Program-made: the position numbers and the translations under genes
Notes under the pieces: generated by a model
The model's database searches: none
Told to the model about the DNA's origin: nothing
What the model saw: only the letters and a program-made list of their open reading frames with translations
Origin: an uncultured Alphaproteobacteria bacterium
GTDB taxonomy: Bacteria; Pseudomonadota; Alphaproteobacteria; RF32; CAG-239
Reading direction: 5' to 3'
DNA: 64,000 nt
Assembly: GCA_944393205.1 (NCBI GenBank)
Contig: CALXZI010000001.1
Location: 5,725 to 69,724 of the forward strand
Part shown: piece after piece, positions 23,368 to 60,587 of the stretch
Layout: the number at the start of each line of letters is the position of its first letter
Position numbering within the stretch: position 1 is the stretch's first letter

Positions 23368-24207
23368 TTAATTTGCTGACTGACAATAAATATAACTGCT
23401 GTCAAACGGGCATTTCAAACCGGTGTTTTTCCCTTGGCAGTTTCCGGCTTTAACATAACCCAGCTGCTCACAATCGGTTATAATCGCTTTTGTGACATCA
23501 CACCAATACGCCGCCAGATTTACATCGTCTTTCTCGCTACAGGTTTCCGCGCCGCAATGATAACAGTTATCAACACCATTATACACTTCTTCCAGTAAAG
23601 TCGTACAACCATCTGTACGGGATGAACATTCAACCGTTGTCCAATTATCATCGCAAATACAAAACGGATACCACTTTTCACCGTCTGAATCTTCACAATA
23701 CTCTACACCGCTGGGTTCTTTCAAGCCGGTTTCCTTACAGTCATAAGGATAAACCGTTTTAGAGCAGCTGCATTTTTCATACCAAATAACACCATCGGCC
23801 GGACTACGGCAAGATCCGCCACTACCGGTAGCGCCCACATAATCAGCGCAACCTTCGTAAGGAAAACGAGAGGTATTGCATATAGTTTCCGAACCGGCGC
23901 ATCCGCATTCCGGATCCAAGACACCGTTGCAAACATACTTACCGCCTTCCATATTAAGAACCCGATCACTGGCGCAAGTACAGCGATAATATGTCTTGCC
24001 TTTATAAGTACATGTTTGTTCTTGATATCCTTCCTCACAAGGCGTCGTTCGGGTGTAACCTTCGCAACCGACCATCCAGCTGGAATTATCCAAACATCCG
24101 TCGCCATTTAAAATTCCGGGTAAAAAACAAACTTTGGCCTCCGCGCCAGATACTGATACAATCAGTGTTAAAACAAAAAACATCAGGATTTTTACCGGTG
24201 TTCGCAT
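23368..24207 (-). CDS. secreted cysteine-rich protein (~34 Cys in 279 aa)
   Basis: Signal peptide MRTPVKILMFFVLTLIVSVSGAEA. Dense CxC/CxxC spacing throughout, no recognisable family. Confidence 0.55.
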   Translation of the reverse strand: MRTPVKILMFFVLTLIVSVSGAEAKVCFLPGILNGDGCLDNSSWMVGCEGYTRTTPCEEGYQEQTCTYKGKTYYRCTCASDRVLNMEGGKYVCNGVLDPECGCAGSETICNTSRFPYEGCADYVGATGSGGSCRSPADGVIWYEKCSCSKTVYPYDCKETGLKEPSGVEYCEDSDGEKWYPFCICDDNWTTVECSSRTDGCTTLLEEVYNGVDNCYHCGAETCSEKDDVNLAAYWCDVTKAIITDCEQLGYVKAGNCQGKNTGLKCPFDSSYIYCQSAN

Positions 24208-24312: not shown

Positions 24313-24840
24313 TTATCCGTATTTTTCTTTCAGTTGATAAATATAATCAATCACATCTTCTCTGTCCCATTTTGCACTACCTCGGATACGGCCGATTTCT
24401 TGACCGCTTTCATTAATCAAAACAGTGTGCGGACTGCTGAATATGCCAAAATCAGAGGCGACAATGCCACGTTCATCCACATAAAAATCAACATCCGTTG
24501 CACCATAACGTTTTAAAAAGCGTTTTTGTTCGGCAACAGATGACCATTCTTCGTTTGGTGATATCAACAATAATTTAACGCCATAATCTTTGGTCGCATT
24601 ATGAAAGCCGTTCAAGCTTTTAAGTTCGCCGATACACGGACCGCAATCACGCGACCAAAAAACCGCCAGCACAAAATCGCCTTTAAAATCCGATAAGCTG
24701 TAGCGCTGACCGCTTTCATGAATGATTGTATGTCTCGGCACTTCACGCGGTTCGGCATATATATTAACACCTTCTTCGGCAAAAACCGGAAACACAAACA
24801 AAAACACCGAAAAGATTGTTTGAATAATAAGTTTCAACAT
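24313..24840 (-). CDS. periplasmic thioredoxin-like thiol:disulfide oxidoreductase (TlpA/ResA-like)
   Basis: Signal peptide plus WSRDCGPCIGE (CxxC in thioredoxin-fold context), 175 aa. Confidence 0.7.
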   Translation of the reverse strand: MLKLIIQTIFSVFLFVFPVFAEEGVNIYAEPREVPRHTIIHESGQRYSLSDFKGDFVLAVFWSRDCGPCIGELKSLNGFHNATKDYGVKLLLISPNEEWSSVAEQKRFLKRYGATDVDFYVDERGIVASDFGIFSSPHTVLINESGQEIGRIRGSAKWDREDVIDYIYQLKEKYG

Positions 24841-24930
24841 AGCCTGTTAAAATCCTCAATTTTACTTTGTAATTTTCAATCATATTAAATATAATTATTA
24901 TCAATCTTAATACAATAAAAAGGTTAAAAA

Positions 24931-25065
24931 ATGAAATACATTTTCAAATTTTTTATTATCGCCGTCATTGTATTGACCATATGCGGGTTAGCAGCCTGCG
25001 GCAAAGTTTCTGACCCTGTGCCGCTTGAAGACAGCGGCTATCCGCACAGCTACCCGCGGCGTTAA
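24931..25065 (+). CDS. small lipoprotein (44 aa) immediately upstream of the vWA gene
   Basis: Hand-called ORF below the track threshold: MKYIFKFFIIAVIVLTICGLAACGKVSDPVPLEDSGYPHSYPRR. Lipobox LAAC, AAAGG RBS 8 nt upstream, stop 20 nt before the vWA start. Confidence 0.5.
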   Translation: MKYIFKFFIIAVIVLTICGLAACGKVSDPVPLEDSGYPHSYPRR

Positions 25066-25084
25066 AAATCAAAGGATGGTAAAA

Positions 25085-25771
25085 ATGGATGAACAGAAAA
25101 AAATTACCGATGAAACAATTCCTTATGTAGAATTTGCCGACAATGCAAACGAACGCACACCCTGTGTGTTGGTATTGGATTGTTCCGGTTCCATGCGCGG
25201 CGAACCGATAAAACAACTCAATGCCGGCTTAAGTGCTTTGGAAAAAGAATTAAAAGAAGATATTGATGCCAGCTCGCGCGTTCAACTCTTAATCATCAAA
25301 GCCTGTGGCAAAGATGAAGCCGTCATCAGTTCGGATTGGGTAGACGCCATGAACTTTACCGCACCGGTCATGGAAGCCGGTGGTTTGACACCTCTTGGTA
25401 AAGCCATGGAATTAGCTCTGCAAAAAATTGAAGAACAAAAATGTCTGTATGACAGCTGCGGTGTTACCTCCAAACGTCCGTGGATATTTTTAATCAGCGA
25501 TGGCGAACCGACGGATTACGGCTGGGAGCAAGCCGCCGAAAAATGCCGTTACGCCCAACAGAACAAAAAAGTAATTATTCATGCCGTCGGCACGCAAGGA
25601 GCCAATCTGGATAAATTAGCCAAATTTTCATTAATGTCGCCCAAACGCCTGACCGGCCTAAAATTTACCGAATTTTTCTTATGGTTAAGCCGTAGCGTTT
25701 CCTGCATTTCCAAAGCAGCACCCAACGCCGACGATTTACTTGAGGATATTGAAGACTGGAATGATGAATAA
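25085..25771 (+). CDS. von Willebrand factor A (TerY-like) protein
   Basis: MIDAS motif LDCSGSM, typical vWA length. Start at MDEQKK with an AAAGGATGG RBS. Confidence 0.75.
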   Translation: MDEQKKITDETIPYVEFADNANERTPCVLVLDCSGSMRGEPIKQLNAGLSALEKELKEDIDASSRVQLLIIKACGKDEAVISSDWVDAMNFTAPVMEAGGLTPLGKAMELALQKIEEQKCLYDSCGVTSKRPWIFLISDGEPTDYGWEQAAEKCRYAQQNKKVIIHAVGTQGANLDKLAKFSLMSPKRLTGLKFTEFFLWLSRSVSCISKAAPNADDLLEDIEDWNDE

Positions 25772-26510
25772 AAAACAAAATATGCACATTGTCGCCACCA
25801 GCGTGACCGGCCCGTACCATCGTGCCAAAAATTTGCCTTGTCAAGATTTTTATGCACATGCTTGCCGCGGTGATCGGTTGGTTGCTGTCGTGTCTGATGG
25901 AGCCGGTTCAGCCCGATACGGCAAAATTGGCGCCAAAACCGTATGCGATACCTTGTGCGATATTTTAATTTCAGGTTCCTTGCACAATGTGCGGCAAAAA
26001 GTAATTGATGCTTTGGAAGCGGCGCGGCAAAAACTGATATATCATCGTTTCAATAAATCTAAAAGTGAAAACGGGTTAATAGATTTTGCCGCCACGGTTG
26101 TCGGCACCGTATACACCAAAAAGGGCGGTTTGTTTTTTCATATCGGTGATGGCGCGGCCATTGCTTTAAATGATTCGCATCCGCATATTATTGTCTCTCG
26201 TCCCGAAAATGGTTTATTCTCATGCGAAACATATTTTTTTACCATGGACGATTGGAAAGACAGTTTGCGCTTTACTCCGTTTGATAAAGCAAATAGTCTG
26301 ATGCTAATGACTGACGGCGTTACCAGCTTTGCCTTTACCAAGGGATTTGACAATATTGAAAATGGTTTTGTTGAACCCATTAACCGTTTTTTGCATAGTG
26401 AAAGCAACCGCCGCAAAGCCGTTCGCGCGTTGAATAACACGCTTGATGCGCCACGTGCCTGTCATTTGAACCCTGATGACAAAACACTTTTATGGGTTGG
26501 CTTAAGATGA
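25761..26510 (+). CDS. PP2C-family Ser/Thr phosphatase
   Basis: PP2C-like motifs VVSDGAGSARYG, HIGDGAAIAL and LMTDGV. The start overlaps the vWA stop by 11 nt. Confidence 0.7.
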   Translation: MMNKKQNMHIVATSVTGPYHRAKNLPCQDFYAHACRGDRLVAVVSDGAGSARYGKIGAKTVCDTLCDILISGSLHNVRQKVIDALEAARQKLIYHRFNKSKSENGLIDFAATVVGTVYTKKGGLFFHIGDGAAIALNDSHPHIIVSRPENGLFSCETYFFTMDDWKDSLRFTPFDKANSLMLMTDGVTSFAFTKGFDNIENGFVEPINRFLHSESNRRKAVRALNNTLDAPRACHLNPDDKTLLWVGLR

Positions 26511-27967
26511 ACACACAAAATGCTATGACCGAACAAAATTTTTTATATTATAACGCCATATACGGTGACGGTCATTTTGAACGCGAAAAGCTGGGAGAAC
26601 TTTTAAACAAAGGCGGAGCCGCCGGTAAAATCTATCGCGACGTCAACCATCCGAAATTTGTTGCAAAAATTTTTCACGACCGCACCAAGAGCCATACCAA
26701 CCGCCAAAAATTAGAAGCAATGCTACACAATCGTCCCAACATTCCCCCGATTGAATACGATGGGAAAATGTATGTTCAGATTGCATGGCCGGAAGCCGTA
26801 TTGGAAGACGACGATGGTTTTTGTGTCGGTTATCTGATGCCGTTGATTAATATGGATGAAGCTGTTTCTTTAGACCATCTGATGCAAAAAGCTGTGCGCA
26901 AAAAACTCGGCCTTTCCGAAAGTTACAGCAATCGTTTATATGCGGCATACAATGTGGCTTCAATGGTGGCGGCATTGCACAAATGCGGGCATTACATTGT
27001 AGATTTAAAACCGGCAAACGTATCAGTTTACAAAGAAAATATGTTGGTGGCAATGTTTGATTGTGACGGCTTTTCCATCAAAGGTGAAAAAGGCCGTTAT
27101 CCGGCAGAATTTGTAAGCGAGGAATATATTTATCCCGAAGGTATGCGGCAAAATTGCGAAGATATGGGCGAAGAACAAGATAAATTTGCCTTGGCGGTAA
27201 TTATTTTCAAATTACTAAACAACGGCATCCACCCTTTTTCCGGCACACCGCGCAAAAACACCGAGATGCTTACCATTCAAACCCGCATAGAACAATATCA
27301 CTATGCCTATGGCCTGTGGCCAGATTCCTATCAGGCGCCCAACCCATACAGCATCCATCATTTCTTTGATAAAAAAACACTGGAACTGTTTGATCGGGCT
27401 TTTTTAAAAGGCCAAAAACGACCGGCAGCTAAAGAATGGCAAGCTCATCTGGAGTACCTTTTTCGCAATTTAAAAACCTGCAAACAAAATCCCGACCACA
27501 TTTACTTCACATCCAAAGGCTGTGGTTTATGTGCCATAGAAGAAAAATTTAAACAAAACATGGCCGCCGTCAAAGAAGAAAAAGCCATGCCGGTTAAAAT
27601 CCGTGGACTTGAAATCTCCGAACTTTCTACCGAAAAAAATGAACAGTTAAAACTGGAAAGACGTTTAAAATTCGTCAAACTTAATAAAGTTACATTAGCC
27701 GGCATAGTTTTTTATTTGTTTTTTTTCGGAAGCTTATCCTTTATTTTAAAACCGTTTCATAAACTTTTATCTTCCGGCGGATACGCTATACAACTGATTG
27801 TATGCGCCCTTGTCATCAAAGCTTTATATACGGCAGGAACATATTTGCAAAACAAATTACCCCTTTTGCAAAATCAAGCTTTGTTTAATATGCTCAAAAT
27901 TTATGCTTTAATTAATATCATCGTTGCTTTTATTATCTTAAATAATTTAACACTTTCCTCTTATTAA
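26507..27967 (+). CDS. Hanks-type Ser/Thr protein kinase with a C-terminal 3-TM anchor
   Basis: Gly loop GGAAGKIY, catalytic loop HYIVDLKPANV, DFG-like FDCDGF. Three C-terminal hydrophobic helices. ATGA start/stop overlap with the PP2C gene. Confidence 0.75.
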   Translation: MNTQNAMTEQNFLYYNAIYGDGHFEREKLGELLNKGGAAGKIYRDVNHPKFVAKIFHDRTKSHTNRQKLEAMLHNRPNIPPIEYDGKMYVQIAWPEAVLEDDDGFCVGYLMPLINMDEAVSLDHLMQKAVRKKLGLSESYSNRLYAAYNVASMVAALHKCGHYIVDLKPANVSVYKENMLVAMFDCDGFSIKGEKGRYPAEFVSEEYIYPEGMRQNCEDMGEEQDKFALAVIIFKLLNNGIHPFSGTPRKNTEMLTIQTRIEQYHYAYGLWPDSYQAPNPYSIHHFFDKKTLELFDRAFLKGQKRPAAKEWQAHLEYLFRNLKTCKQNPDHIYFTSKGCGLCAIEEKFKQNMAAVKEEKAMPVKIRGLEISELSTEKNEQLKLERRLKFVKLNKVTLAGIVFYLFFFGSLSFILKPFHKLLSSGGYAIQLIVCALVIKALYTAGTYLQNKLPLLQNQALFNMLKIYALINIIVAFIILNNLTLSSY

Positions 27968-28125
27968 AATTGACCAACAAATTTTTTAACATTTTTTTAC
28001 TCTAAAAAGCGCACAAACACGCTTTAGTATCCTCAAAGAAACTATCTGTCTTACAAGTGCCTACTTTTCTTTTTATAAAAAAGAGCATAAATAGATTTAA
28101 GTAAAATTTTTTTAAGGAAAAAGCA

Positions 28126-29514
28126 TTGAAAAACCTAAATCCAATTCTTTTATCAGGTAAAGAAGTTCTGCCTCTGATTGAAGGCGGCAAAGGCATCAAC
28201 GGCAGTAACGGTTACAGCTCGGGCGCTTGGGCTAAAGAAAACTGCGTCGGAACTTTTTCGGCTGTCAGTCCCGATGTTGTTGACAACAAAGGCAACGTGA
28301 TTATTGAAACATTTAAGAAAAAAATCCGTGCTGAACGCCACGAAGAAATGGTGCAATACGCCATTCAAGGTGGTATAGATCAGGCAAAAATTGCCCATGA
28401 AGTTTCTGGTGGAAATGGACGTATCCACATGAACATGCTTTGGGAAATGGCCGATTCCGAACGTATAATCGCTGCAATTTTGGAAAGAAGCAAAGGGCTC
28501 ATTCATGGTGTAACTTGCGGTGCCGGTCTGCCTTATCATTTAGGCGAACTTGCTTCAAAATTCAAAGTTTATTATTACCCGATTGTTTCTTCGGCTCGCG
28601 CGTTTCAGGTTTTATGGAAACGGGCTTATTCTAAATGTTCGGAATATTTAGGCGGTGTGGTTTATGAAGATCCATGGTTGGCCGGTGGTCATAACGGTCT
28701 ATCCAATGCCGAAAATCCTATGCTCCCGCAAGCGCCCTACAACCGTTTGGTTGAGTTACGCAAACTTTTGCGCGAGCTGGGACTTGAAAAAACACCAATC
28801 ATTATTGCCGGAGGTGTCTGGAAATTAAGCGACTGGCAAGATTATATTGATAATCCCGAATTAGGCGACGTTGCATTCCAGTTCGGCACCCGTCCGATGA
28901 TAACCAAAGAAAGCCCGATAAGCGATGCATGGAAAAATGTAATGATGCATGTCAAAAAAGGCGATGTAATTTTACAAAAATTCAGCCCAACCGGCTTTTT
29001 CTCATCAGCCATAAAAAACACCTTTTTAGAAAAACTGATTGAACGTAAAAAAGGTGAAATCTCTTTCAAAAACGAACCGGATGCCGAATATTCACACGCA
29101 TTACAAATGAACGCACACCGTATGGTTTATATCAAGCCGGAAGATGCTGATAAAGCGCAAAATCAAATTAACGCCGGTTTAAGCGTCATTCAAGAAACCC
29201 CTGATCAAACAGTTGTATTTATGAGCGAAGAAGACTGGAAAAAGATGAAACAAGACCGCGCTGAATGTGTCGGTTGCTTATCACAATGTCAGTTTTCAAC
29301 ATGGTCACGCGCAAACGGCACCACCGGCAAACTGCCGGATCCGCGTACCTATTGTATTCATAAGACCCTTTATGAAGTCGGCCATGGCGGCAGCGTTAAA
29401 GACCACTTGTTGTTTGCCGGTCATCAGGTTTATCGTTTTGCCACTGACCCATTGTACCGCAACGGTATTCCGACGGTAAAAGAATTGATTGAAAAAATCA
29501 AAGTCGGTGAATAA
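28126..29514 (+). CDS. nitronate monooxygenase/FabK-like FMN-dependent oxidoreductase with a C-terminal extension
   Basis: TIM-barrel NMO-like motifs (GVTCGAGLPYHLGE, IIAGGVWKLSDW). TTG start with an AAGGAAAAAG RBS. Extra ~100 aa C-terminal with CVGCLSQC. Confidence 0.4.
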   Translation: MKNLNPILLSGKEVLPLIEGGKGINGSNGYSSGAWAKENCVGTFSAVSPDVVDNKGNVIIETFKKKIRAERHEEMVQYAIQGGIDQAKIAHEVSGGNGRIHMNMLWEMADSERIIAAILERSKGLIHGVTCGAGLPYHLGELASKFKVYYYPIVSSARAFQVLWKRAYSKCSEYLGGVVYEDPWLAGGHNGLSNAENPMLPQAPYNRLVELRKLLRELGLEKTPIIIAGGVWKLSDWQDYIDNPELGDVAFQFGTRPMITKESPISDAWKNVMMHVKKGDVILQKFSPTGFFSSAIKNTFLEKLIERKKGEISFKNEPDAEYSHALQMNAHRMVYIKPEDADKAQNQINAGLSVIQETPDQTVVFMSEEDWKKMKQDRAECVGCLSQCQFSTWSRANGTTGKLPDPRTYCIHKTLYEVGHGGSVKDHLLFAGHQVYRFATDPLYRNGIPTVKELIEKIKVGE

Positions 29515-51143: not shown

Positions 51144-51914
51144 CTATTGTCCTTGTGCCTGACGACGCGCCGTATCAATATATGATTCTTTGTCGCCTTC
51201 AGCACCATGATATGCAAGCGAATAGCTTGCCACCAAAAAGCCATAAGGGTTGTTCAGACGATCTGCCGGCTCGGCGAAATTTAAACGTACATACATAATC
51301 CGCATGGTTGCCCGCCAATAAGAAACAGCCGGTACCGGATTATTACCGGTAAAATCATAAGTTGTAAACTGCGCTTGCCAAAGCCCGCGCGACAACGGCC
51401 GCACCCATGCGATTTCAATATACCGCTGTAGCCCGTTACGCCGAAACATCATAATACTGGCACGAGCATCTGTATTCACAAAGCTTTCATATTCTGTCGG
51501 TGTAGAATACCAATACAGCAATGAACCGCGTCCCCAACGTGACACCAGTTCATCAAAATCATTCGTAACCGTATAACGAGCGATTAAATATTCCCGAATA
51601 TAGTTTTCCGTCACTAAATCACTAACCGGATAACTGACCTCTCGCTTCTGCACTTGTTCAATCTGGCTGAAATACTTATTAATGTTATAAAATTCCGGAG
51701 TCACGCGTATCAAAGGCAACATCAAATAAATAGCGCTGGCCAGCATCATGTTAAAACAAATACTCAACCCCGACAAAATCACCAAAAGCCGCGACGTCCA
51801 CAGATAACGTCGTTCAGGAAAAGCCTCTACGTGTACCTTTTCCGGAAAATTCCCCAACTGATCCGGACTTTCTTTTTCCTTATATTTAAAGAGCGTGCGA
51901 AAAATATCAAACAT
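51144..51914 (-). CDS. VirB8-like type IV secretion component (NTF2-like periplasmic domain)
   Basis: ~40-aa cytoplasmic N-terminus, single TM (LLVILSGLSICFNMMLASAIYLMLPL), periplasmic domain with a VirB8-like NPxGF motif (RLNNPYGFLVASY). Confidence 0.45.
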   Translation of the reverse strand: MFDIFRTLFKYKEKESPDQLGNFPEKVHVEAFPERRYLWTSRLLVILSGLSICFNMMLASAIYLMLPLIRVTPEFYNINKYFSQIEQVQKREVSYPVSDLVTENYIREYLIARYTVTNDFDELVSRWGRGSLLYWYSTPTEYESFVNTDARASIMMFRRNGLQRYIEIAWVRPLSRGLWQAQFTTYDFTGNNPVPAVSYWRATMRIMYVRLNFAEPADRLNNPYGFLVASYSLAYHGAEGDKESYIDTARRQAQGQ

Positions 51915-52051: not shown

Positions 52052-53947
52052 ATGAAAAAACTTTTCTGTTTTGCGGCAAGCCTGCTGATGTTGGCATCTT
52101 GCCATTTAGAAGGCTATAACGCCAATCGCGGCCAACAGCCGGCGCCTGCTTATTATTCCGACTGGGATCGCGCCATTCGTATTGACGTTGATATGCAAAA
52201 TATGTACCTCAACACCCCACGCAAGATAGAGCGGCCGATTGATATGTACATGGCCATGGCTTTAGCCCTAAAATACAATTACACCCGCCGCATGATAAGC
52301 TATGAAGAAAACCTCTTAAAAGCCGGAAATTCCTCATTTGCCCAATTACAGGAAATTTTAAACAATGCCGGCTATATCAACACCAACAATTCCGCGCACT
52401 TAAGTCCCGACTTAAAAATTGCTTGGAATATTTTGGATTTATCCACCGTTTATTATCAAACAAGCGACCCCTCATTTAAGGCCAATGTTGCCTTTGAGCA
52501 AAGCCGCAAAGTTATCCACAACATCTTGCAGGAAACGCGTCTTTTATATTGGCAAACCCTGACCGCTCAACGTCTGTTGCCTGTCATTAATGACATGACC
52601 GAATACATGACCCTTGAAGTAGATGAAATGAATTCAGCCGCCCGCGAATTGGCTGCCAAAAACGAGTCTCCTTCGCGCGAGGCTTTGGTCAAAAAAAGAA
52701 AATATATGGAAGCGGTTAAAAATTTGTCTGCTTTGAAACACAATCTGGAGACAGCGCAAAACCGCATGGCAAGTTTAATGGGTTTTCACCCCTCCACGGA
52801 TTTCAAGCTTGTCGGTGCGCAATACGGCAACTTTGAATTGCCCGAAATCCGCTCCAATTTGAGCCAGTTGGAATGGTTGGCGCTGTCAAATCGTCCTGAA
52901 CTGCGCGTGCATGATCTGATTTCAAGCGCTGAAGATAAAGAGATCATCATCCGTCAATTTCGTGAGAAAAACCAAAACAAATACCAAAACAATCCGCGTT
53001 ATAATCGTCAATGGTCAAAACAAGGATGCGAAATCGGCATGAACGTCATTGAAGAAGTCCGCAAAGAAAACGCCGCAACATTAGAATCTTTGCGTCGCCA
53101 ACGCATGACTTCGTTAATTTTGAATCAGGTTTATGTTTCTTGGGCATTATACATGGCTGCGGTTGAAGATTATCAAATCAACATGGAAATTGCCGCAACG
53201 TCTGAAAACATCGCCGAAGATTACACAATTGCCGATGGCGCCAAAAACGAGCAAAGCCAGCTTGAAGCTGCGCGCGCCATTGAAGACGAAGTTAAAGCAT
53301 TTTCTTCCTACGTAGACGTACAAGAAGCGTTAGGCAATATGTATGCCACCATTGGTTTGGACGCCCTGCCGTATTATATGTTGGGTGAAAAACCGTCAAA
53401 AATCGCATTGTATCTGCGTGCCACCATGGAAAAGTGGAACGAAGGCAAATTTTTGCCCGACAATCGTCCGTATCTGATGAACATACCGTCAAAACGGCCG
53501 CCGGTTAACCTATCTTCATCAACCGTACTGCCTGATGTGGTGGTTGAAACCGGTCAACCAATACACATCAACGTACCGTTAGACTTATTTGAAAAACTCG
53601 GTTGGAAAGGCAAAGTAAAAACACGCGCCGGCTTGATTGATGACAGTCGCTTGCCCAAATGGCTTCATTATGATGAAAACAGTTGGGTTTTCAGTGGCAA
53701 AGCCATGCCCAAAGACGGTGGTGTTTATCACATAAAGATATATGGCGTGGACGACAGCGGCAACGTGGCGTATGCCACATTCAAACTGACCGTGCGTGAG
53801 GTTTATGTTCCATCGCTGCGTTTGCGCGGTCTGACCGATGGACGCAAGGCGACCGTCCTAAAACGTTGCCATGGCGCCAACTGTAAAGATGCCTACATCA
53901 ACCCAGATGACTTGGGCAAAGAAGTGGAAAAAGCACCCACTTTCTAA
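52052..53947 (+). CDS. outer-membrane efflux factor (TolC/OMF-like) lipoprotein with a C-terminal Ig-like extension
   Basis: Lipobox LMLASC. OMF-like heptad segments (LYWQTLTAQRLL, LALSNRPELR). A C-terminal ~150 aa beta-rich region resembles a putative Ig/cadherin-like domain. Confidence 0.4.
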   Translation: MKKLFCFAASLLMLASCHLEGYNANRGQQPAPAYYSDWDRAIRIDVDMQNMYLNTPRKIERPIDMYMAMALALKYNYTRRMISYEENLLKAGNSSFAQLQEILNNAGYINTNNSAHLSPDLKIAWNILDLSTVYYQTSDPSFKANVAFEQSRKVIHNILQETRLLYWQTLTAQRLLPVINDMTEYMTLEVDEMNSAARELAAKNESPSREALVKKRKYMEAVKNLSALKHNLETAQNRMASLMGFHPSTDFKLVGAQYGNFELPEIRSNLSQLEWLALSNRPELRVHDLISSAEDKEIIIRQFREKNQNKYQNNPRYNRQWSKQGCEIGMNVIEEVRKENAATLESLRRQRMTSLILNQVYVSWALYMAAVEDYQINMEIAATSENIAEDYTIADGAKNEQSQLEAARAIEDEVKAFSSYVDVQEALGNMYATIGLDALPYYMLGEKPSKIALYLRATMEKWNEGKFLPDNRPYLMNIPSKRPPVNLSSSTVLPDVVVETGQPIHINVPLDLFEKLGWKGKVKTRAGLIDDSRLPKWLHYDENSWVFSGKAMPKDGGVYHIKIYGVDDSGNVAYATFKLTVREVYVPSLRLRGLTDGRKATVLKRCHGANCKDAYINPDDLGKEVEKAPTF

Positions 53948-54930: not shown

Positions 54931-54966
54931 TGAAAAAGGGGAGATTACCTCCCCTTTGTTTTTTAT
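54931..54966. terminator. hairpin terminator downstream of the giant pilin-like gene
   Basis: AGGGGAG-attac-CTCCCCT with T-runs on both strands. Confidence 0.55.
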
Positions 54967-57900
54967 TACCACGGCTCGTCATATTTAAGCGCCGGATCAT
55001 TCAAACGATTAATATATTCACTGTTTGAACCTCCGCCGGCCGTCGGTCCTGACTTACTGTAACCTTTTCTGAAGTTGTTCAGTTGGTCATAGCGGTCAAC
55101 ATATATATTGCTGGTACCGGAACCATACAAGTCCGTGCGGTCAAAATAGCAGTAAACCGTAGCATAAGCCTCTAAAGTTTGCGCCCGCACCGGAAAGACA
55201 TTCCAATAAACCTCATCCGGATCAGCGTTTACTTGAAGTTTTGCAAGCAATTTGCTGTAAAAGCTTCCCGGATAAACAAAGCCCATAATAGCCGACCAAC
55301 CCAAAAAGCCATCGCCGCATTCACCGCCGATACTTTCACCGCATGCACCGGCGACATTTTCGGCCTGCGGTTGCACTTTGCTTCGCAACCATGTGTTCTG
55401 TTGAAAATACAACGGCTGTGGCGAATAAGGACGTGTAACATTGTTAGTCGTCACTTGCACTGTCGGCTCTGCCGCATGACCTAAATAATATATTTGGTGT
55501 TCTTCGCCGCTTTCATCGCGAAAACTGGTGGTTGTGTATTGCGCACCGGTCACCGTCTGCGCCGCACCTAAAGAAGCCACATCGCCAAGTTTATTGATTT
55601 CTGAATGCTCGTCCACCACAAAACGGGTATTACCATCAAGAGTATCACCCACTTTATGAGCGTCACGCGTAATCGGACCGGCTTGAGCCATCATAAAACC
55701 AGCCGGTGTAATCGTAATCACGCGGGCATAACCGGGCGGACATTGCGGCGCCGGCACCACGCCCATAAACGGCGACGCCCATTGATTAGCACCGCTCAAC
55801 GTACCGCTACCGACTTCCTCAACACACGTACCGCTACCTGCGCAACTGGCGCTTGTTACTTCCAAACGTCCGCCGCTTTCAGCAACTTTAATACTATCCA
55901 AATCAATACCTGTGTCTAAATAACTGTTGTTTACCACATAAATACCTTTATTGATAAAATCCGGTAAAATATCGCTCAAACGGGCACCGCCGCGTGTAGT
56001 AAGTTTGATATCATGCATCACTGAAGTGTATGCCGGATTAACCATATAACGATCATAAAGAGCTTCACCGGTATCATATGGATCCCCTTCCCGCGTATAA
56101 TCAAGCGAATATACCGGTTGTGCCAAACTGTTATTGTACAAAGCGTTAGAAACCAAACGATTGGCTTCAATATAGCCAAGGCCGCTGTCGGCTGCATAGC
56201 CGCTGTCCCCTGATAAAGGTGCTTCCACCTCTATCGCACCGCGGCGGATATAAACGCTGCTACCGGTATCGCTATCTCTGCTGCCTTCATCTTTAGGTTC
56301 AAAATCAAGAGCATCCACATACAAAACTGCATCTGAAGTCAGAACACTTCCATCAGACGCTGGAGCGCTTAAAGAAGATACTCTCAAACTTTGGTCATCA
56401 ACTTCAACCACCGCCTCTGCGTTTGTCGGACGTACTTCCGCAGCATCGCCGTACACTCTGAACAACGGGTTGGAATCAATCGTCAAGCTTCCAGAATTGA
56501 TAAAGACTTCGCCTTCACCGGCCGTATTGACATACAAGCGGTCTTCAAGCATACCGTTATTATCGTCGCTAGAAGTTTTAACAACCTGAAAAACACCATC
56601 AAGAACCGATGTTGTATTGGCAGAGATATTTACCGTATTAACATCAGCACCGGGTGACCCGTCTATTTCCAATGCGCCGTTTTGAATACTAACCTTTTCA
56701 TCAGCATCCGCTGTATAAATCTCTATCCTATTAGCACCGCGTAGTTGAGAAGTTGTCTCACTTAAAATAAGAGCCGAACTGTCACCGCCGTTTTGGCCAT
56801 TCGGTCCATATAATTGCGTTGTCGTATTATTAATTAACATAATTTCATTTGTCGTTCCCGGATTAGTTACTGATACTCCCGCTCCGGTCGCGTGCAACCA
56901 ACGATTATCCCGATTGTCCGAAAAATCCGTACCACCGGCATGCAATTCTTTTGTATTAAATTTTTCCGTATATAGCGTATCGCCCACTTCCAAATTATCC
57001 CGAACATAAGTGCTACCCTGAACATTAAGTTTCGGGTTCGTCACCACTTGCGCCGCCCGTCCGCCATCGGCAGTTGTACCAATGACTGTATCACCGGTAA
57101 TATTGGTATTGGTGCTGGTAATGTTGGTTTGTCCGGTTTTAATATTGGTTGTAGAAGTGGCCCCCTCTCCGGCCGCACGGGCAATTTCCACATTACCATC
57201 CATCAAAGCCACCCGATTAGCATCGGCCGTGATATACGATCCGTCCGGACCGGCCTTAAACGAAGTCGTCTCATCGGCGCTGGCGACCGTGGTGCTTCCA
57301 CTCACATCTAAAGTGTTGCGGATGATGGTGGCATAATCGGTATCAACTTCACCGTCAACATCGGTACCACGTGTTACGGCCAAACCGACACTGCCTTCAT
57401 TGCCAAAAAGTTCTGCCCGATTCTGGTTGACATACAAGAAATTATCATCTTCCAAGCCAAAAACCATTTCCGGTGTATCCACATTGCCGCCGACATAAAA
57501 AGCATCGCTCAAAGCCGAAAGTGAGCCCGCCAACCATGCTGAACCGCTGTAACCATTCTCATTGGTCAACACCAAATCTTCTTCATGGTTTTCCCAGTCC
57601 GTGCTACCAAGAATAAGCTGATCAACACCCAAAATCTTGTGCATCTCGTCCGCACCGGCAACACCACCCATATAAAGATCTGTCACCATTGTATTACGCC
57701 ATAGTTGGTCAGTAGATTCAACTTCCGTACGTTGCAAATATTTTTCGTTTTCCAATGCTCCGGATGTTGCCGAGTTAATGGCGTCTGACGAAGCCACCAC
57801 AATAGAACCTTTTGTACCGGTAAGTCCCAATGAGTTTAACTCACCATTATCCAAACTCCAAACGCCGCCCACACCCATGGCATCACCATCAGCATTAACA

Positions 57901-58382
57901 TAACCGCCGTTACTTCCAATCATGGAAGCGATTCGTGCCGCGCGCATCTCGCCAATATCCATGCCTTTTGGGAGCTCTACAAACGACGTGATAGACATAC
58001 CTTGTCTTTTTAACACTACCTTCGGTATACCAAAGTTTTTAACTTCATTAAAATTGTAACCATACGGGAAATAGTCATGAATACCTTTAGCAATTTGATC
58101 TTGCTCACTGGATAAATCAATGGCCAAGGAATCATCTTCCGATTTCAGTTGGTCTTCCAACAAACTCTGGTAGTTGGCTGAAACATAACTGTCCACCGCC
58201 TTCATAATGGTACGCAAATGCGTGGCCGTATTGATATCCTGCAACTCGGTTGTCCGTTCCGCAGACTTTTTATAAAGCGTTGGCGTCACCAAAGCAATCA
58301 AACCCAACATAGCCATGGCCTCAATCATCATGCTGCCGGCTTGGCTTATTCTGCTTAACAAAGTTTTGGATTTCATTTTCAT
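54966..58382 (-). CDS. giant type IV pilin-like protein (~1138 aa), secreted fibre/adhesin-like
   Basis: Start trimmed to MKMKSKTLLSRISQAG|SMMIEAMAMLGLIALV with a GGAGAAAG RBS: prepilin-like leader, Gly, and Glu at +5. The body is a long G/D/T/S/N-rich beta-type region with C-terminal Cys pairs. Confidence 0.5.
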   Translation of the reverse strand: MKMKSKTLLSRISQAGSMMIEAMAMLGLIALVTPTLYKKSAERTTELQDINTATHLRTIMKAVDSYVSANYQSLLEDQLKSEDDSLAIDLSSEQDQIAKGIHDYFPYGYNFNEVKNFGIPKVVLKRQGMSITSFVELPKGMDIGEMRAARIASMIGSNGGYVNADGDAMGVGGVWSLDNGELNSLGLTGTKGSIVVASSDAINSATSGALENEKYLQRTEVESTDQLWRNTMVTDLYMGGVAGADEMHKILGVDQLILGSTDWENHEEDLVLTNENGYSGSAWLAGSLSALSDAFYVGGNVDTPEMVFGLEDDNFLYVNQNRAELFGNEGSVGLAVTRGTDVDGEVDTDYATIIRNTLDVSGSTTVASADETTSFKAGPDGSYITADANRVALMDGNVEIARAAGEGATSTTNIKTGQTNITSTNTNITGDTVIGTTADGGRAAQVVTNPKLNVQGSTYVRDNLEVGDTLYTEKFNTKELHAGGTDFSDNRDNRWLHATGAGVSVTNPGTTNEIMLINNTTTQLYGPNGQNGGDSSALILSETTSQLRGANRIEIYTADADEKVSIQNGALEIDGSPGADVNTVNISANTTSVLDGVFQVVKTSSDDNNGMLEDRLYVNTAGEGEVFINSGSLTIDSNPLFRVYGDAAEVRPTNAEAVVEVDDQSLRVSSLSAPASDGSVLTSDAVLYVDALDFEPKDEGSRDSDTGSSVYIRRGAIEVEAPLSGDSGYAADSGLGYIEANRLVSNALYNNSLAQPVYSLDYTREGDPYDTGEALYDRYMVNPAYTSVMHDIKLTTRGGARLSDILPDFINKGIYVVNNSYLDTGIDLDSIKVAESGGRLEVTSASCAGSGTCVEEVGSGTLSGANQWASPFMGVVPAPQCPPGYARVITITPAGFMMAQAGPITRDAHKVGDTLDGNTRFVVDEHSEINKLGDVASLGAAQTVTGAQYTTTSFRDESGEEHQIYYLGHAAEPTVQVTTNNVTRPYSPQPLYFQQNTWLRSKVQPQAENVAGACGESIGGECGDGFLGWSAIMGFVYPGSFYSKLLAKLQVNADPDEVYWNVFPVRAQTLEAYATVYCYFDRTDLYGSGTSNIYVDRYDQLNNFRKGYSKSGPTAGGGSNSEYINRLNDPALKYDEPW

Positions 58383-58392
58383 GAGCTTTCTC

Positions 58393-59184
58393 CTAACCAT
58401 AAATCTGCTGAATGGCAAACAGACAATGTACATCTTCTTGATCACAGCCAATACGCTTAAAATCTTCATCGCTTTGGACTGCTTCATAGATTTCAAAATA
58501 TTCAAACTCCTCGTCACCAACCGGAACTCCGCCGGCATCATAATGCTGAACCATACGTCCGCCGCTCAAAACCAGCTTACCATCAACCGTTTCCGTGTAA
58601 CCAAAAGTGCTGCCATATCCGCGAATTTTAGCTACCGCCATTCTCATATCGGCATTGGGATTGAGCGTTTCTTTATTAATCCAACGTGACGGCATCTGGG
58701 TAAAAGACACAACATAAATACCCGAACAAACACCATCTTCCAAACAATCGTTACTACAGCAACTGCCATCACCGCCGGAAACACATTGTTTGGTTGTATC
58801 CCCCTCTTCAAAGCAAAAAACCTTACTCACAATCTCACCACCGCCGGTAATATTAGCCACATCTTCAAGCTGGTCACCGGCTCTGGCATATCCGACCGGC
58901 AAATAATCCCGAATATCATCAATTGTAAGTGTGCCCTCGCCAGTTTCGCCTTGTGTGGTAACATTCACGCCGTCGCCCGGATAATAAGTTACGTAATCTT
59001 GTCCGGTTTTGGACGGCGCCTGTGAGTTAAAATAATCTTTTACGCCATTGTGCAGTGCTCTAAATTTAGCTAATACGACACCTGCTCTGGTTTCCGCAAA
59101 AATCCGATCCATATCGGAACGAACCGACAGGTTAAAAGAAGACAATGCAACAATAAAAGTCGCCAAAACAACCCACAAATACAT
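58393..59184 (-). CDS. secreted/membrane-anchored Cys-containing protein, possible minor pilin-like partner (263 aa)
   Basis: N-terminal hydrophobic helix then an amphipathic helix (MYLWVVLATFIVALSSFNL...), Cys cluster CVSGGDGSCCSNDCLEDGVCSG. Ends 10 nt before the giant gene. Confidence 0.4.
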   Translation of the reverse strand: MYLWVVLATFIVALSSFNLSVRSDMDRIFAETRAGVVLAKFRALHNGVKDYFNSQAPSKTGQDYVTYYPGDGVNVTTQGETGEGTLTIDDIRDYLPVGYARAGDQLEDVANITGGGEIVSKVFCFEEGDTTKQCVSGGDGSCCSNDCLEDGVCSGIYVVSFTQMPSRWINKETLNPNADMRMAVAKIRGYGSTFGYTETVDGKLVLSGGRMVQHYDAGGVPVGDEEFEYFEIYEAVQSDEDFKRIGCDQEDVHCLFAIQQIYG

Positions 59185-59325
59185 TTTTTAAGCCTGCACC
59201 ATATAGTTTTCCATTATTATATCATAACATAAAAAAACCTCTGTTTCTACATTTTATCAAACATTCGGCTAAATATTCATAATTCTGTAACAATATTTTT
59301 ATACGCCCGCATGAGTAAAAATTTA

Positions 59326-59356
59326 ATTAAAAAAGCCCGCTCATCGCGGGCTTCAA
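59326..59356 (-). terminator. rho-independent terminator after the fadL-like gene
   Basis: AGCCCGC-tcat-cGCGGGCT with an A6 run on the plus strand, which is a T-run on the minus strand. Confidence 0.65.
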
Positions 59357-59375: not shown

Positions 59376-60587
59376 TTAAAATTTGTACTGCAGTTGCAAA
59401 CCCAACATATTGCTGTAGCTCTTGTAATGAGCTTTAATATTGTGCGCAGCCGTTGAGTTTTGCATAAACAAATGGGCAAAACCGGCATCAATCTGCATAT
59501 TACCTTGCCGATAGCTGGCACCCAAAGAAAGCCAAATACGATTACTGTCCGGAATGCGCGTTGTGCGGTGATATTTATTTCTGACCGGACTTTGATCCCA
59601 AGCCGTACCGGCGCGCAATGTCCAGTTTTCGTTCAGATAATAATCCGCACCCAAAGAAATCGTCCACGTTGAACGCCATTTTTCCTGCGTGGTATTTTTG
59701 CCTGTCGGTTGCAAAATCAGCGCGCTTGATTTTAGCGTAAACTCCTCAAAACTATCTTCCCAATCGGTCCAACGAACTGAAGCCGAAAGCCCCCATTTAT
59801 CATTAAGCTGATGATATCCGGAAACCAAAATGCTTTGCGGCAAATCAGGTGAAGCTTCGCCATTATTAACCACCTGATTGAACACGGGCAAATCCGCGCC
59901 GCTGACTGTGTCGTCGCCTTTGACCGTCTGCATGCTTCTACCTTTATATGACACACCGACTCTCGTACGGTCTGAAAACTCGTACATTGCGCCGACGCTC
60001 CACGCCACTGTCCAACCATCAAGGTCAAATTCACTAAAGCCTCCCTGCCCGATTGCCGGCACCGTATTGGTCATCTTGCCGTGAATATAACGAGCAATCA
60101 CCGAAGCGCCCAACGAAAGCTTGTCGGTTGCCTTATATGCTACTGCCGGTGCAATATCTATAATTTCCAACAGAGATTCCACACCATCGGCAGCCACAAA
60201 GCTGTTTCTTTTATAGCGGGTTTTTAAGCCATACGGAGCATAAACGCCCAAACCTGCAAAAAGACGATCATTAAACTGATATTGAGCAAAAACATTCGGT
60301 AGCGGCACACCAAAATTCATTTTAGTACGTTCATCGCCGTCACGCACTTTTGAATGAATTTGTGCCACTGTCAAGCCCGCCTGCATACCGGTGCCTTGTT
60401 TAAGCGTCATACCCGCGGGATTATAAGCCAGTGCCGAATAATCATCACCAACGATGCCGGCGCCAGCAAACGAACGTCCAAGACCGGTTACCGAATATTC
60501 ATTGAGTTGATAACCTGCCGCCTGTACATTAAACCCCCATAAGCTCGCCGTTAAAATAATAGCCGCCGATATTTTGTTTTTATTCAT
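59376..60587 (-). CDS. fadL: FadL/OmpP1-family outer-membrane long-chain fatty acid/hydrophobic compound channel
   Basis: Signal peptide, beta-barrel pattern, C-terminal ...LQLQYKF. Confidence 0.75.
   Translation of the reverse strand: MNKNKISAAIILTASLWGFNVQAAGYQLNEYSVTGLGRSFAGAGIVGDDYSALAYNPAGMTLKQGTGMQAGLTVAQIHSKVRDGDERTKMNFGVPLPNVFAQYQFNDRLFAGLGVYAPYGLKTRYKRNSFVAADGVESLLEIIDIAPAVAYKATDKLSLGASVIARYIHGKMTNTVPAIGQGGFSEFDLDGWTVAWSVGAMYEFSDRTRVGVSYKGRSMQTVKGDDTVSGADLPVFNQVVNNGEASPDLPQSILVSGYHQLNDKWGLSASVRWTDWEDSFEEFTLKSSALILQPTGKNTTQEKWRSTWTISLGADYYLNENWTLRAGTAWDQSPVRNKYHRTTRIPDSNRIWLSLGASYRQGNMQIDAGFAHLFMQNSTAAHNIKAHYKSYSNMLGLQLQYKF

Follow-up and report, generated by a model that had tools for sequence, protein, structure and literature searches.

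What does a protein of 1138 aa do with the N-terminus of a type IV pilin? The question is raised by two adjacent genes in a 64,000-nucleotide stretch of contig CALXZI010000001.1 (the whole of which is referred to as the window), which comes from an uncultured alphaproteobacterium of the CAG-239 lineage. An earlier interpretation of the letters alone, hereafter the sequence-only reading, had seen in these genes an operon encoding a giant type IV pilin-like protein and a smaller partner. The follow-up summarized here supports both parts of that view through the conservation of the pilin-like motif, the signals that surround the genes, the type IVb filament genes of the lineage, and the position of the partner gene, which lies directly upstream of the giant gene in 77/78 loci. 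As for function, we lean with modest confidence towards the view that the pair provides uncultured gut Alphaproteobacteria with a dedicated tip module for a type IVb pilus, the giant serving as a modular minor pilin; its cleavage, incorporation into a filament, tip location and adhesin function, as well as the role of the partner, are what we infer. The features on which the argument begins are the following.

54966..58382, minus strand: the giant gene, an open reading frame (ORF) of 1138 aa plus stop codon.
58393..59184, minus strand: the partner gene, an ORF of 263 aa with a leaderless N-terminal hydrophobic helix and a Cys-rich, putatively extracytoplasmic domain.
58386..58393, minus strand: ribosome-binding site (RBS) GGAGAAAG, read from the sequence; it shares the last base of the partner stop codon, and its GGAG ends 7 nt before the ATG of the giant gene.
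58335..58382, minus strand: basic leader MKMKSKTLLSRISQAG, residues 1-16 of the giant, ending in Gly(-1).
58272..58334, minus strand: hydrophobic, alpha1N-like segment SMMIEAMAMLGLIALVTPTLY, residues 17-37, with Glu at +5.
57783..58334, minus strand: pilin-like module, residues 17-200, with a predicted N-terminal helix of ~66 residues packed against a beta-sheet.

Start codon, prepilin-type motif and operon signals

Both ORFs were found on the minus strand of the window by the ORF scan. The maximal large ORF spans 54966..58541 (1191 aa), and the ATG at 58382 yields 1138 aa. The true start of the giant gene is 58382, because the database entry for the identical protein (P0001) is 1138 aa long, the homologs among the matches listed (120, of 1074-1209 aa) all align from this Met, and the upstream extension, which is read-through of the 3' end of the partner gene, is not conserved in other loci. 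A start at 58541, which the sequence-only reading had kept in view as an alternative, would in addition mean a 149-nt overlap with the partner coding sequence; it finds no support and was rejected. That reading had itself placed the start at 58382 behind the RBS GGAGAAAG and the partner 10 nt upstream, and this gap is confirmed by the positions of the partner stop codon (TAG, 58395-58393) and of the ATG.

From this start, the giant protein begins with MKMKSKTLLSRISQAG followed by SMMIEAMAMLGLIALVTPTLY, the sole combination of G/A-x4-E and a hydrophobic stretch in the six frames of the window. Every one of 78 homologs from species-level genomes has Gly(-1) and Glu(+5), and the +1 residue is S, G or T. 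In the alignments, G16 is either invariant or kept in at least 90% of sequences, depending on the alignment, and E21 is invariant; the class III-type motif is strictly kept while overall identity within the family is 30-65%. About 20 mostly hydrophobic residues form the alpha1N-like part, which runs into a long alpha1 helix, and residues 26-50, with a mean column identity of 0.97, are the best conserved stretch of the giant. It is usual for pilins that the helix right after the hydrophobic segment is their most conserved part. Judged from these alignments, the motif is real and above chance, and the leader, Gly(-1), Glu(+5) and hydrophobic helix recognized by the sequence-only reading all stand.

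Structure prediction agrees with the motif. The AlphaFold model of the giant was built from 84 sequences and has a mean predicted local distance difference test score (pLDDT) of 62.7 and a predicted template modelling score (pTM) of 0.38, so that only its domains are usable. In this model a single helix covers residues 2/4-69, the helix of the module (residues 17-~200) has a pLDDT of 80-90, and the predicted fold is that of a pilin, with alpha1C lying on an antiparallel beta-sheet. The closest structural matches are type IVb pilus proteins, not pseudopilins.

The pair is flanked by further signals, and its GC content is that of the surroundings.

59376..60587, upstream of the partner gene: FadL/Toluene_X gene (Pfam).
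59332..59354, minus strand: strong terminator-like hairpin of the intrinsic type, GAAGCCCGC-GATGA-GCGGGCTTT and then a T-run, after the upstream FadL-family gene; candidate 5' boundary of the unit.
59221..59249, minus strand: sigma-70-like promoter candidate (TAGAAA, 17 nt, TG-TATGAT), 37 nt before the partner ATG.
54935..54957, no strand assigned: GC-rich hairpin AAAGGGGAGGTAATCTCCCCTTT, beginning 9 nt past the stop codon of the giant gene and terminator-like on both strands.

The hairpins and the promoter are consensus matches only; the promoter candidate came from a consensus scan with 9/12 matches and an extended -10 TG, and such sites are not above shuffled expectation in the region. Taken together, the terminator-like hairpin before the pair, the 10-nt gap, the RBS and the hairpin after the pair fit a single operon unit.

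Architecture and distribution of the two proteins

Beyond the pilin-like module, the giant and its partner are made up of the following parts.

57513..57782, minus strand: linker, residues 201-290 of the giant, with pLDDT below 50 yet fairly conserved (column identity 0.57-0.76).
56058..57512, minus strand: variable, indel-rich and beta-rich region, residues 291-775, rich in G/D/T/S/N (column identity 0.3-0.6).
55908..56057, minus strand: near-invariant motif YDRYMVNPAYTSVMHDIKLTTRGGARLSDILPDFINKGIYVVNN, residues 776-825 (column identity 0.98 and 0.89; pLDDT below 50).
54969..55907, minus strand: predicted C-terminal alpha/beta domain, residues 826-1138, with conserved columns (pLDDT 50-82; tail 1076-1138 below 50).
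59122..59184, minus strand: partner residues 1-21 (MYLWVVLATFIVALSSFNLSV), hydrophobic and without a leader, then R22-x-D24-x-D26-R27; an in-frame stop codon lies just upstream.
58726..58815, minus strand: Cys cluster of the partner (C124, C134, C142, C143, C147, C153).

The sequence-only reading had described the body of the giant as a long G/D/T/S/N-rich and beta-rich sequence with paired cysteines near the C-terminus. This description holds: each of the five residues makes up 8-10% of the middle region, and residues 291-775 are modelled nearly entirely as beta-strands (pLDDT 65-87) in two blocks, in which self-BLAST found no internal repeats. The cysteines are at positions 847/853, 881, 1014/1022 and 1078; C881 and C1078 never vary, and at least 90% of sequences have C1014 and C1022. 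The protein ends in a conserved tail, RLNDPxLKYxxPW-COOH (54969..55010), of which the final Trp is invariant. Two near-invariant segments, YDRYMVNPAYTSVMHDIKLTTRGGARLSDILPDF… within residues 776-825 and the …RLNDPxLKYxxPW tail, are both modelled at a pLDDT below 50. As for size, the giant, which had been called unusual, is extreme, and the earlier wording 'kilodalton-scale' must be corrected to about 120 kDa. Judged from the model and the conservation profile, the succession of a pilin domain that keeps Glu5, a linker, and beta-rich C-terminal domains with conserved Cys pairs is a layout of the TcpB/CofB kind.

The partner begins with MYLWVVLATF... and has neither a leader nor a Glu5, in line with the sequence-only reading, which had noted a hydrophobic N-terminal helix without a canonical cleavage motif and a dense Cys cluster. 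Its eight cysteines are at positions 124, 134, 142, 143, 147, 153, 247 and 254. Among 43 partner sequences, C124, C142 and C143 do not vary and at least 90% have C134, and the same alignment has M1, Y2, W4, A8, T9, F10, S16, R22, D24, D26 and R27 invariant. The conserved cysteines of both proteins fit an extracytoplasmic location. Searches of the partner against Pfam, NCBIfam, PHROGs and PDB sequences gave no match, T2SSK and other pilin families included, and its 58 homologs are, every one, unannotated. When the partner was compared with the giant by pairwise BLAST and local hhalign, only a YLPxGY motif aligned (17 columns, 38% probability); a permissive profile alignment between the partner and the mature giant module was collinear over 201 columns, with a score of 35.1 (P=2.4e-4) against scores of 10.6-25.6 in 30 column-shuffled control runs. 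This is suggestive, not conclusive, of a diverged pilin-like paralog; hhalign found no similarity between the partner and PilS-type pilins.

The giant belongs to a family without a name. A word-indexed search returned 532 homologs, and an exhaustive search with a hidden Markov model (HMM) of 1.84 billion representatives returned 636 representatives at 50% identity (E<=1e-3); the best 150 of these 636 matches are all of the same family, at 432-1471 aa. None of them carries a Pfam domain or a name beyond 'hypothetical protein', the giant itself had no match in Pfam (E<=0.1), NCBIfam or PHROGs, and its profile found no pilin among PDB sequences (best E 0.89). A scan of one genome per species recovered 198 encoding stretches, the hosts of which are essentially all metagenome-assembled genomes of uncultured gut, rumen or faecal Alphaproteobacteria, Candidatus Scatocola, filed by NCBI under Rhodospirillales, among them. 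In at least 198 species the pair belongs to the chromosomal core, in a single copy. Since the pairing is kept in 77/78 loci while the flanks otherwise vary among housekeeping genes, partner and giant form a conserved unit; no signs of mobile elements were seen around it.

One subclade of about 25 loci (L039 3563..8946; another example is L045), with giants about 30-33% identical to that of the window, has the pair divergent from fliL and fliM. The neighbours there include a DUF6468 gene, an MgtE_N-like gene, a gene for an 860-1000-aa protein and uvrB, with a DsbA-like gene ~3 kb downstream. Since fliL and fliM adjoin the pair, this giant-bearing subclade has flagellar genes. The sole literature match on gut Alphaproteobacteria and type IV pili, a paper on Rs-D84, reports no flagella and, given the fliL and fliM of this subclade, probably concerns a different lineage.

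A variable middle region in a two-gene cassette could also suggest a phage-derived tail-fibre-like protein or a secreted toxin-like one (a contact-dependent effector, for example), next to which an accessory or immunity gene is carried. The search of the whole model with Foldseek brought phage proteins to the top, that is, the long tail fibre gp34 of phage T4 (E=0.02) and the tail tip of phage T5 (probability 0.96, E=0.07), but none of its matches, and no propeller in particular, was significant. PHROGs gave no match either, and a single-copy core unit among housekeeping genes, of the same GC content as its surroundings and free of mobile-element signs in at least 198 species, speaks against such an origin, as does the partner, whose membrane anchor and cysteines are unlike those of an immunity protein. 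We therefore consider this explanation very improbable.

Type IVb filament genes in the lineage

Genes of a type IVb filament were found in the lineage.

L089 7887..8591, minus strand, and L001 1..302, on the window's contig ~4.1-4.7 kb past the window end: PilS/bundlin-type prepilin (…AALCG/RSMVEMLGVLAIIGVLSIGAISGYSKAM…, with the slash at the predicted cleavage site), beside ProRS.
L168 352..12309: complete type IVb cluster, also present in L141, L145, L150, L155, L164, L170, L171 and L173.
L042 16588..17301, minus strand: Peptidase_A24 prepilin peptidase (60.3 bits against a cut-off of 26.5 bits), beside groES/groEL.

PilS and Bundlin are type IVb major pilin families. In several giant loci of relatives there are proteins of 200-280 aa with an N-terminus of the form ...G/RSMVEMLGVLAIIGVLS that match Pfam PilS and Bundlin above threshold. 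The prepilin on the window's own contig likewise has the N-terminus …LCG/RSMVEMLGVLAIIGVLS…; it is 198 aa long, ending in …PPYCRS, and 234 aa in another sample. By hhalign, the Gly and Glu of these PilS-type pilins are in register with those of the giant, with the similarity confined to the 19 columns of the signal motif. The PilS-like family is large and diverse, with 5,869 matches at E<=1e-5 (L090-L093, L094-L173), and most of its members are lone orphan genes flanked by housekeeping genes, one beside dprA; some contigs carry 2-3 tandem copies.

A metagenome scan with the pilin profile revealed the type IVb cluster, complete in nine loci. It begins with genes for a TcpQ-like lipoprotein, a secretin, an R64-type PilO and a 532-aa protein without a family, and continues with a T2SSE ATPase, a T2SSF platform protein, a leaderless bundlin-like protein of 191 aa, 1-3 pilins and a short second ATPase. 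The cluster contains neither a large minor pilin nor an A24 peptidase, so the role of a large minor pilin is vacant in these relatives. BLAST and HMM comparisons of the giant and the partner with all proteins of the pilin and cluster loci gave no match. Downstream of the cluster, a flank with redoxin, VWA, PP2C, kinase and NMO-like genes corresponds in synteny to positions 24313-29514 of the window, with identities of 55-88% (aa) and 70-75% (nt); because the nucleotide identity is only this high, the cluster-bearing contigs come from close relatives of other species. The contig with the A24 peptidase gene has the pair as well, and the peptidase gene is 3.2 kb downstream of the giant gene. The record of that contig is labelled 'Bacteroidaceae', probably through a binning or labelling error. 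Pilins, machinery and peptidase thus all exist at the level of the lineage, and the window's own genome yielded the prepilin gene alone.

Other genes of the window may be noted beside the cluster. At the position that the cluster occupies in relatives, the window has a gene for a secreted protein of 279 aa, 29 of them cysteines, that no Pfam family matches (23368..24207, minus strand); this gene adjoins the redoxin gene, and 22 contigs of the species share exactly this arrangement. The block at 25085..29514 (plus strand), which encodes VWA, PP2C phosphatase, Ser/Thr kinase and NMO-like proteins, has 55-88% aa identity to the cluster flank of relatives. We take its first three proteins to resemble a vWA-phosphatase-kinase signalling triad. 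Elsewhere in the window are a lone VirB8 (PF04335) gene followed by a gene for a 197-aa protein without a family (51144..51914, minus strand), with no other type IV secretion genes nearby; 2-3 tandem ORFs of ~165-176 aa without a Pfam match, beside a 491-aa protein likewise without a family (32359..33896, plus strand); and, on the opposite strand two genes downstream of the pair, a gene for a predicted lipoprotein of 631 aa (…LMLASC…) with a C-terminal He_PIG Ig-like domain (52052..53947, plus strand).

For the pair itself, we propose the following course of events. The giant would be inserted in the inner membrane through its class III-type N-terminus and cleaved after Gly16 by an A24 prepilin peptidase, whereupon the pilin module (17-~200) would enter the filament by its hydrophobic alpha1 helix with the help of Glu5. 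More than 900 residues would then stick out from the pilus tip as a variable beta-rich stalk that bears the conserved, putatively disulfide-containing C-terminal domain. These projecting domains are probably an adhesin, and the giant may also prime assembly, as TcpB and CofB do. The 263-aa partner, co-translated from the operon, would act as an obligatory co-factor, with its hydrophobic, leaderless N-terminus as the anchor. Possibly the partner is itself a pilin-like module, diverged and lacking Glu5, which serves the giant as a cap or chaperone.

Several observations weigh against this proposal. The full-length model of the giant is poor, as its pLDDT and pTM indicate. No pilin family HMM of Pfam or NCBIfam matches the giant, and N_methyl (PF07963/IPR012902) fails to match the N-terminal 70 residues of four diverse members even at E<=10; the lineage's own PilS-type pilin reaches only 14.9 bits with N_methyl, under the cut-off of 21.2 bits. 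The pilin-likeness of the partner comes from a single weak profile alignment (35.1 against a shuffled maximum of 25.6). As the sequence-only reading had remarked, no pilus, type II secretion system (T2SS) or Tad machinery genes, prepilin peptidase included, were detected by the Pfam scan of the window; nor is the pair ever beside pilus machinery within 10 kb in the 78 loci. The tcpB and cofB genes sit inside pilus operons, whereas the giant gene lies away from any and is always accompanied by its dedicated upstream partner. In the 22 contigs of the window's species, the syntenic position has no type IVb cluster. At the DNA level only the VWA-NMO block of the window, at 70-75%, ties cluster contigs to giant contigs; co-occurrence of pair and cluster in one genome is putative.

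Some of these points would suit an ordinary bitopic inner-membrane protein that has no relation to type IV filaments and combines a signal anchor with a large beta-rich domain outside the cytoplasm. The Gly/Glu pattern would then be a conserved feature of a transmembrane helix in contact with the partner helix, and the role could be in the envelope or the flagellum. The missing pilin HMM matches, the 19 columns to which similarity with the lineage pilins is limited, the partner with its own N-terminal anchor and nothing more, and the location of the pair among housekeeping genes, in ~25 loci divergent from fliL-fliM, all speak for such a protein. The sequence-only reading had held that a simple signal anchor in a genome without type IV filament machinery would undo its case; the lineage does have genes for type IV filaments, and we regard this explanation as rather unlikely. 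It is also conceivable that the giant is a class III-anchored protein of the surface or periplasm that is not on long pili, its pilin-like N-terminus serving only as a tether to a short pseudopilus or the membrane (compare the pseudopilins of T2SS and the archaeal bindosome), or a substrate or adaptor of such a system. None of the loci showed T2SS genes, however, the sole filament system found in the lineage is the type IVb one with a secretin, and the best structural matches are type IVb pilus proteins rather than pseudopilins. We consider it quite unlikely, and return to the tip module of a type IVb pilus for the comparison that follows.

Comparison with known systems

A precedent for the giant is given by TcpB and CofB, the large minor pilins of the type IVb pili TCP of V. 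cholerae and CFA/III of enterotoxigenic E. coli (ETEC). Both act as initiators at the tip, with about one copy per pilus, and both keep Glu5, which they need only to insert below another subunit (PMC5207764). The giant, at 1138 aa, is 2-3 times larger than TcpB (423 aa; PMC5207764) and CofB (a chain of 496 residues), no sequence homology is detectable by the profile search against PDB sequences or by Pfam, and its C-terminal domains have no recognisable fold.

Modular type IV pilins are widely distributed, with over 1,200 proteins in 264 architectures in a 2021 survey, in which the largest noted has 860 residues; examples are PilB and PilC of S. sanguinis (PMC8179133). They and the giant are alike in that a pilin module bears grafted functional modules displayed by the filament (PMC8179133), but modular pilins are defined by IPR012902/N_methyl together with a known extra domain, and the giant matches neither. 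Surveys by N_methyl/IPR012902 miss the giant family and, if it is indeed one of modular pilins, undercount them.

A different precedent comes from the Tad pili of Alphaproteobacteria, the CpaL/TadG protein of which (~600 aa, minor-pilin-like, at the tip) also combines an N-terminal pilin-like domain with a large middle on the tip. Its conserved extreme C-terminus returns in cis to complete the pilin's beta-sheet (preprint 10.64898/2026.02.14.705861). The giant likewise has a near-invariant C-terminal tail, unplaced in the monomer model, which would be a candidate for the same kind of beta-sheet completion. The giant differs from CpaL/TadG in that it has no match to Pfam TadE/TadG or vWA, and the filament genes of its lineage are type IVb, not Tad.

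In size and presumed role, the giant resembles the tip adhesins PilC/PilY1 and MshQ (~1,000-1,200 aa). A PilK-type pilin is reported to have its beta-sheet completed by the final ~10 residues of PilC/PilY1, as has also been modelled for MshQ, and these adhesins work through this C-terminal peptide with a PilK/GspK-type minor pilin that lacks Glu5 (preprint 10.64898/2026.02.14.705861). However, neither PilY1 nor MshQ is a pilin or has a class III N-terminus, whereas the giant in effect carries its own pilin module; it also has no match to the PilY1/PilC beta-propeller (Pfam, E<=0.1).

The partner, in turn, resembles minor pilins of the GspK/PilK/PilX type in its hydrophobic N-terminal helix without a Glu at position 5, and a capping role would fit, because first-subunit pilins of the GspK type are characteristically without Glu5 (PMC5207764). 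GspK-type proteins, though, keep a cleavable leader that ends in Gly, whereas the partner begins directly with M-Y-L-W; and its collinear profile similarity to the pilin module of the giant is weak, with no T2SSK or other pilin-family match beside it.

A more specific version of our proposal draws on both of these likenesses, and we offer it as doubtful when taken as a whole. The pair would be a self-contained tip-initiation module kept apart from the machinery, with the partner as the first, capping subunit and the giant as a PilY1-sized adhesin that has acquired a pilin module. Beta-strand complementation by the ...PW tail or the 776-825 motif, either in cis or onto the partner, would secure the complex. 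The pair would thereby stand in for the minor pilins that the alphaproteobacterial type IVb cluster lacks, and would mediate attachment of these gut bacteria to host mucosa or to other microbes.

If the pair is indeed a tip module, the giant would represent the largest pilin-type family described so far (about 830-1470 aa), and a PilY1-sized adhesin could be fused directly to a pilin module. As a conserved single-copy surface protein in at least 198 species, the giant would then be a candidate determinant of the attachment of commensals to their host or to other cells, and the coupled leaderless partner and the two invariant islands would be handles for studying the assembly of the type IVb tip complex.

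In short, the principle is a known one: TcpB, CofB and the modular pilins already place a pilin module with grafted domains at the tip of type IVb pili, and the giant is extreme in size without being new in principle. What is new is an undescribed family that is not visible to signature models, a size equal to that of PilY1 and MshQ together with a pilin module of its own, an obligatory leaderless partner, a consistent separation from the pilus operon, and two invariant sequence islands in the giant.

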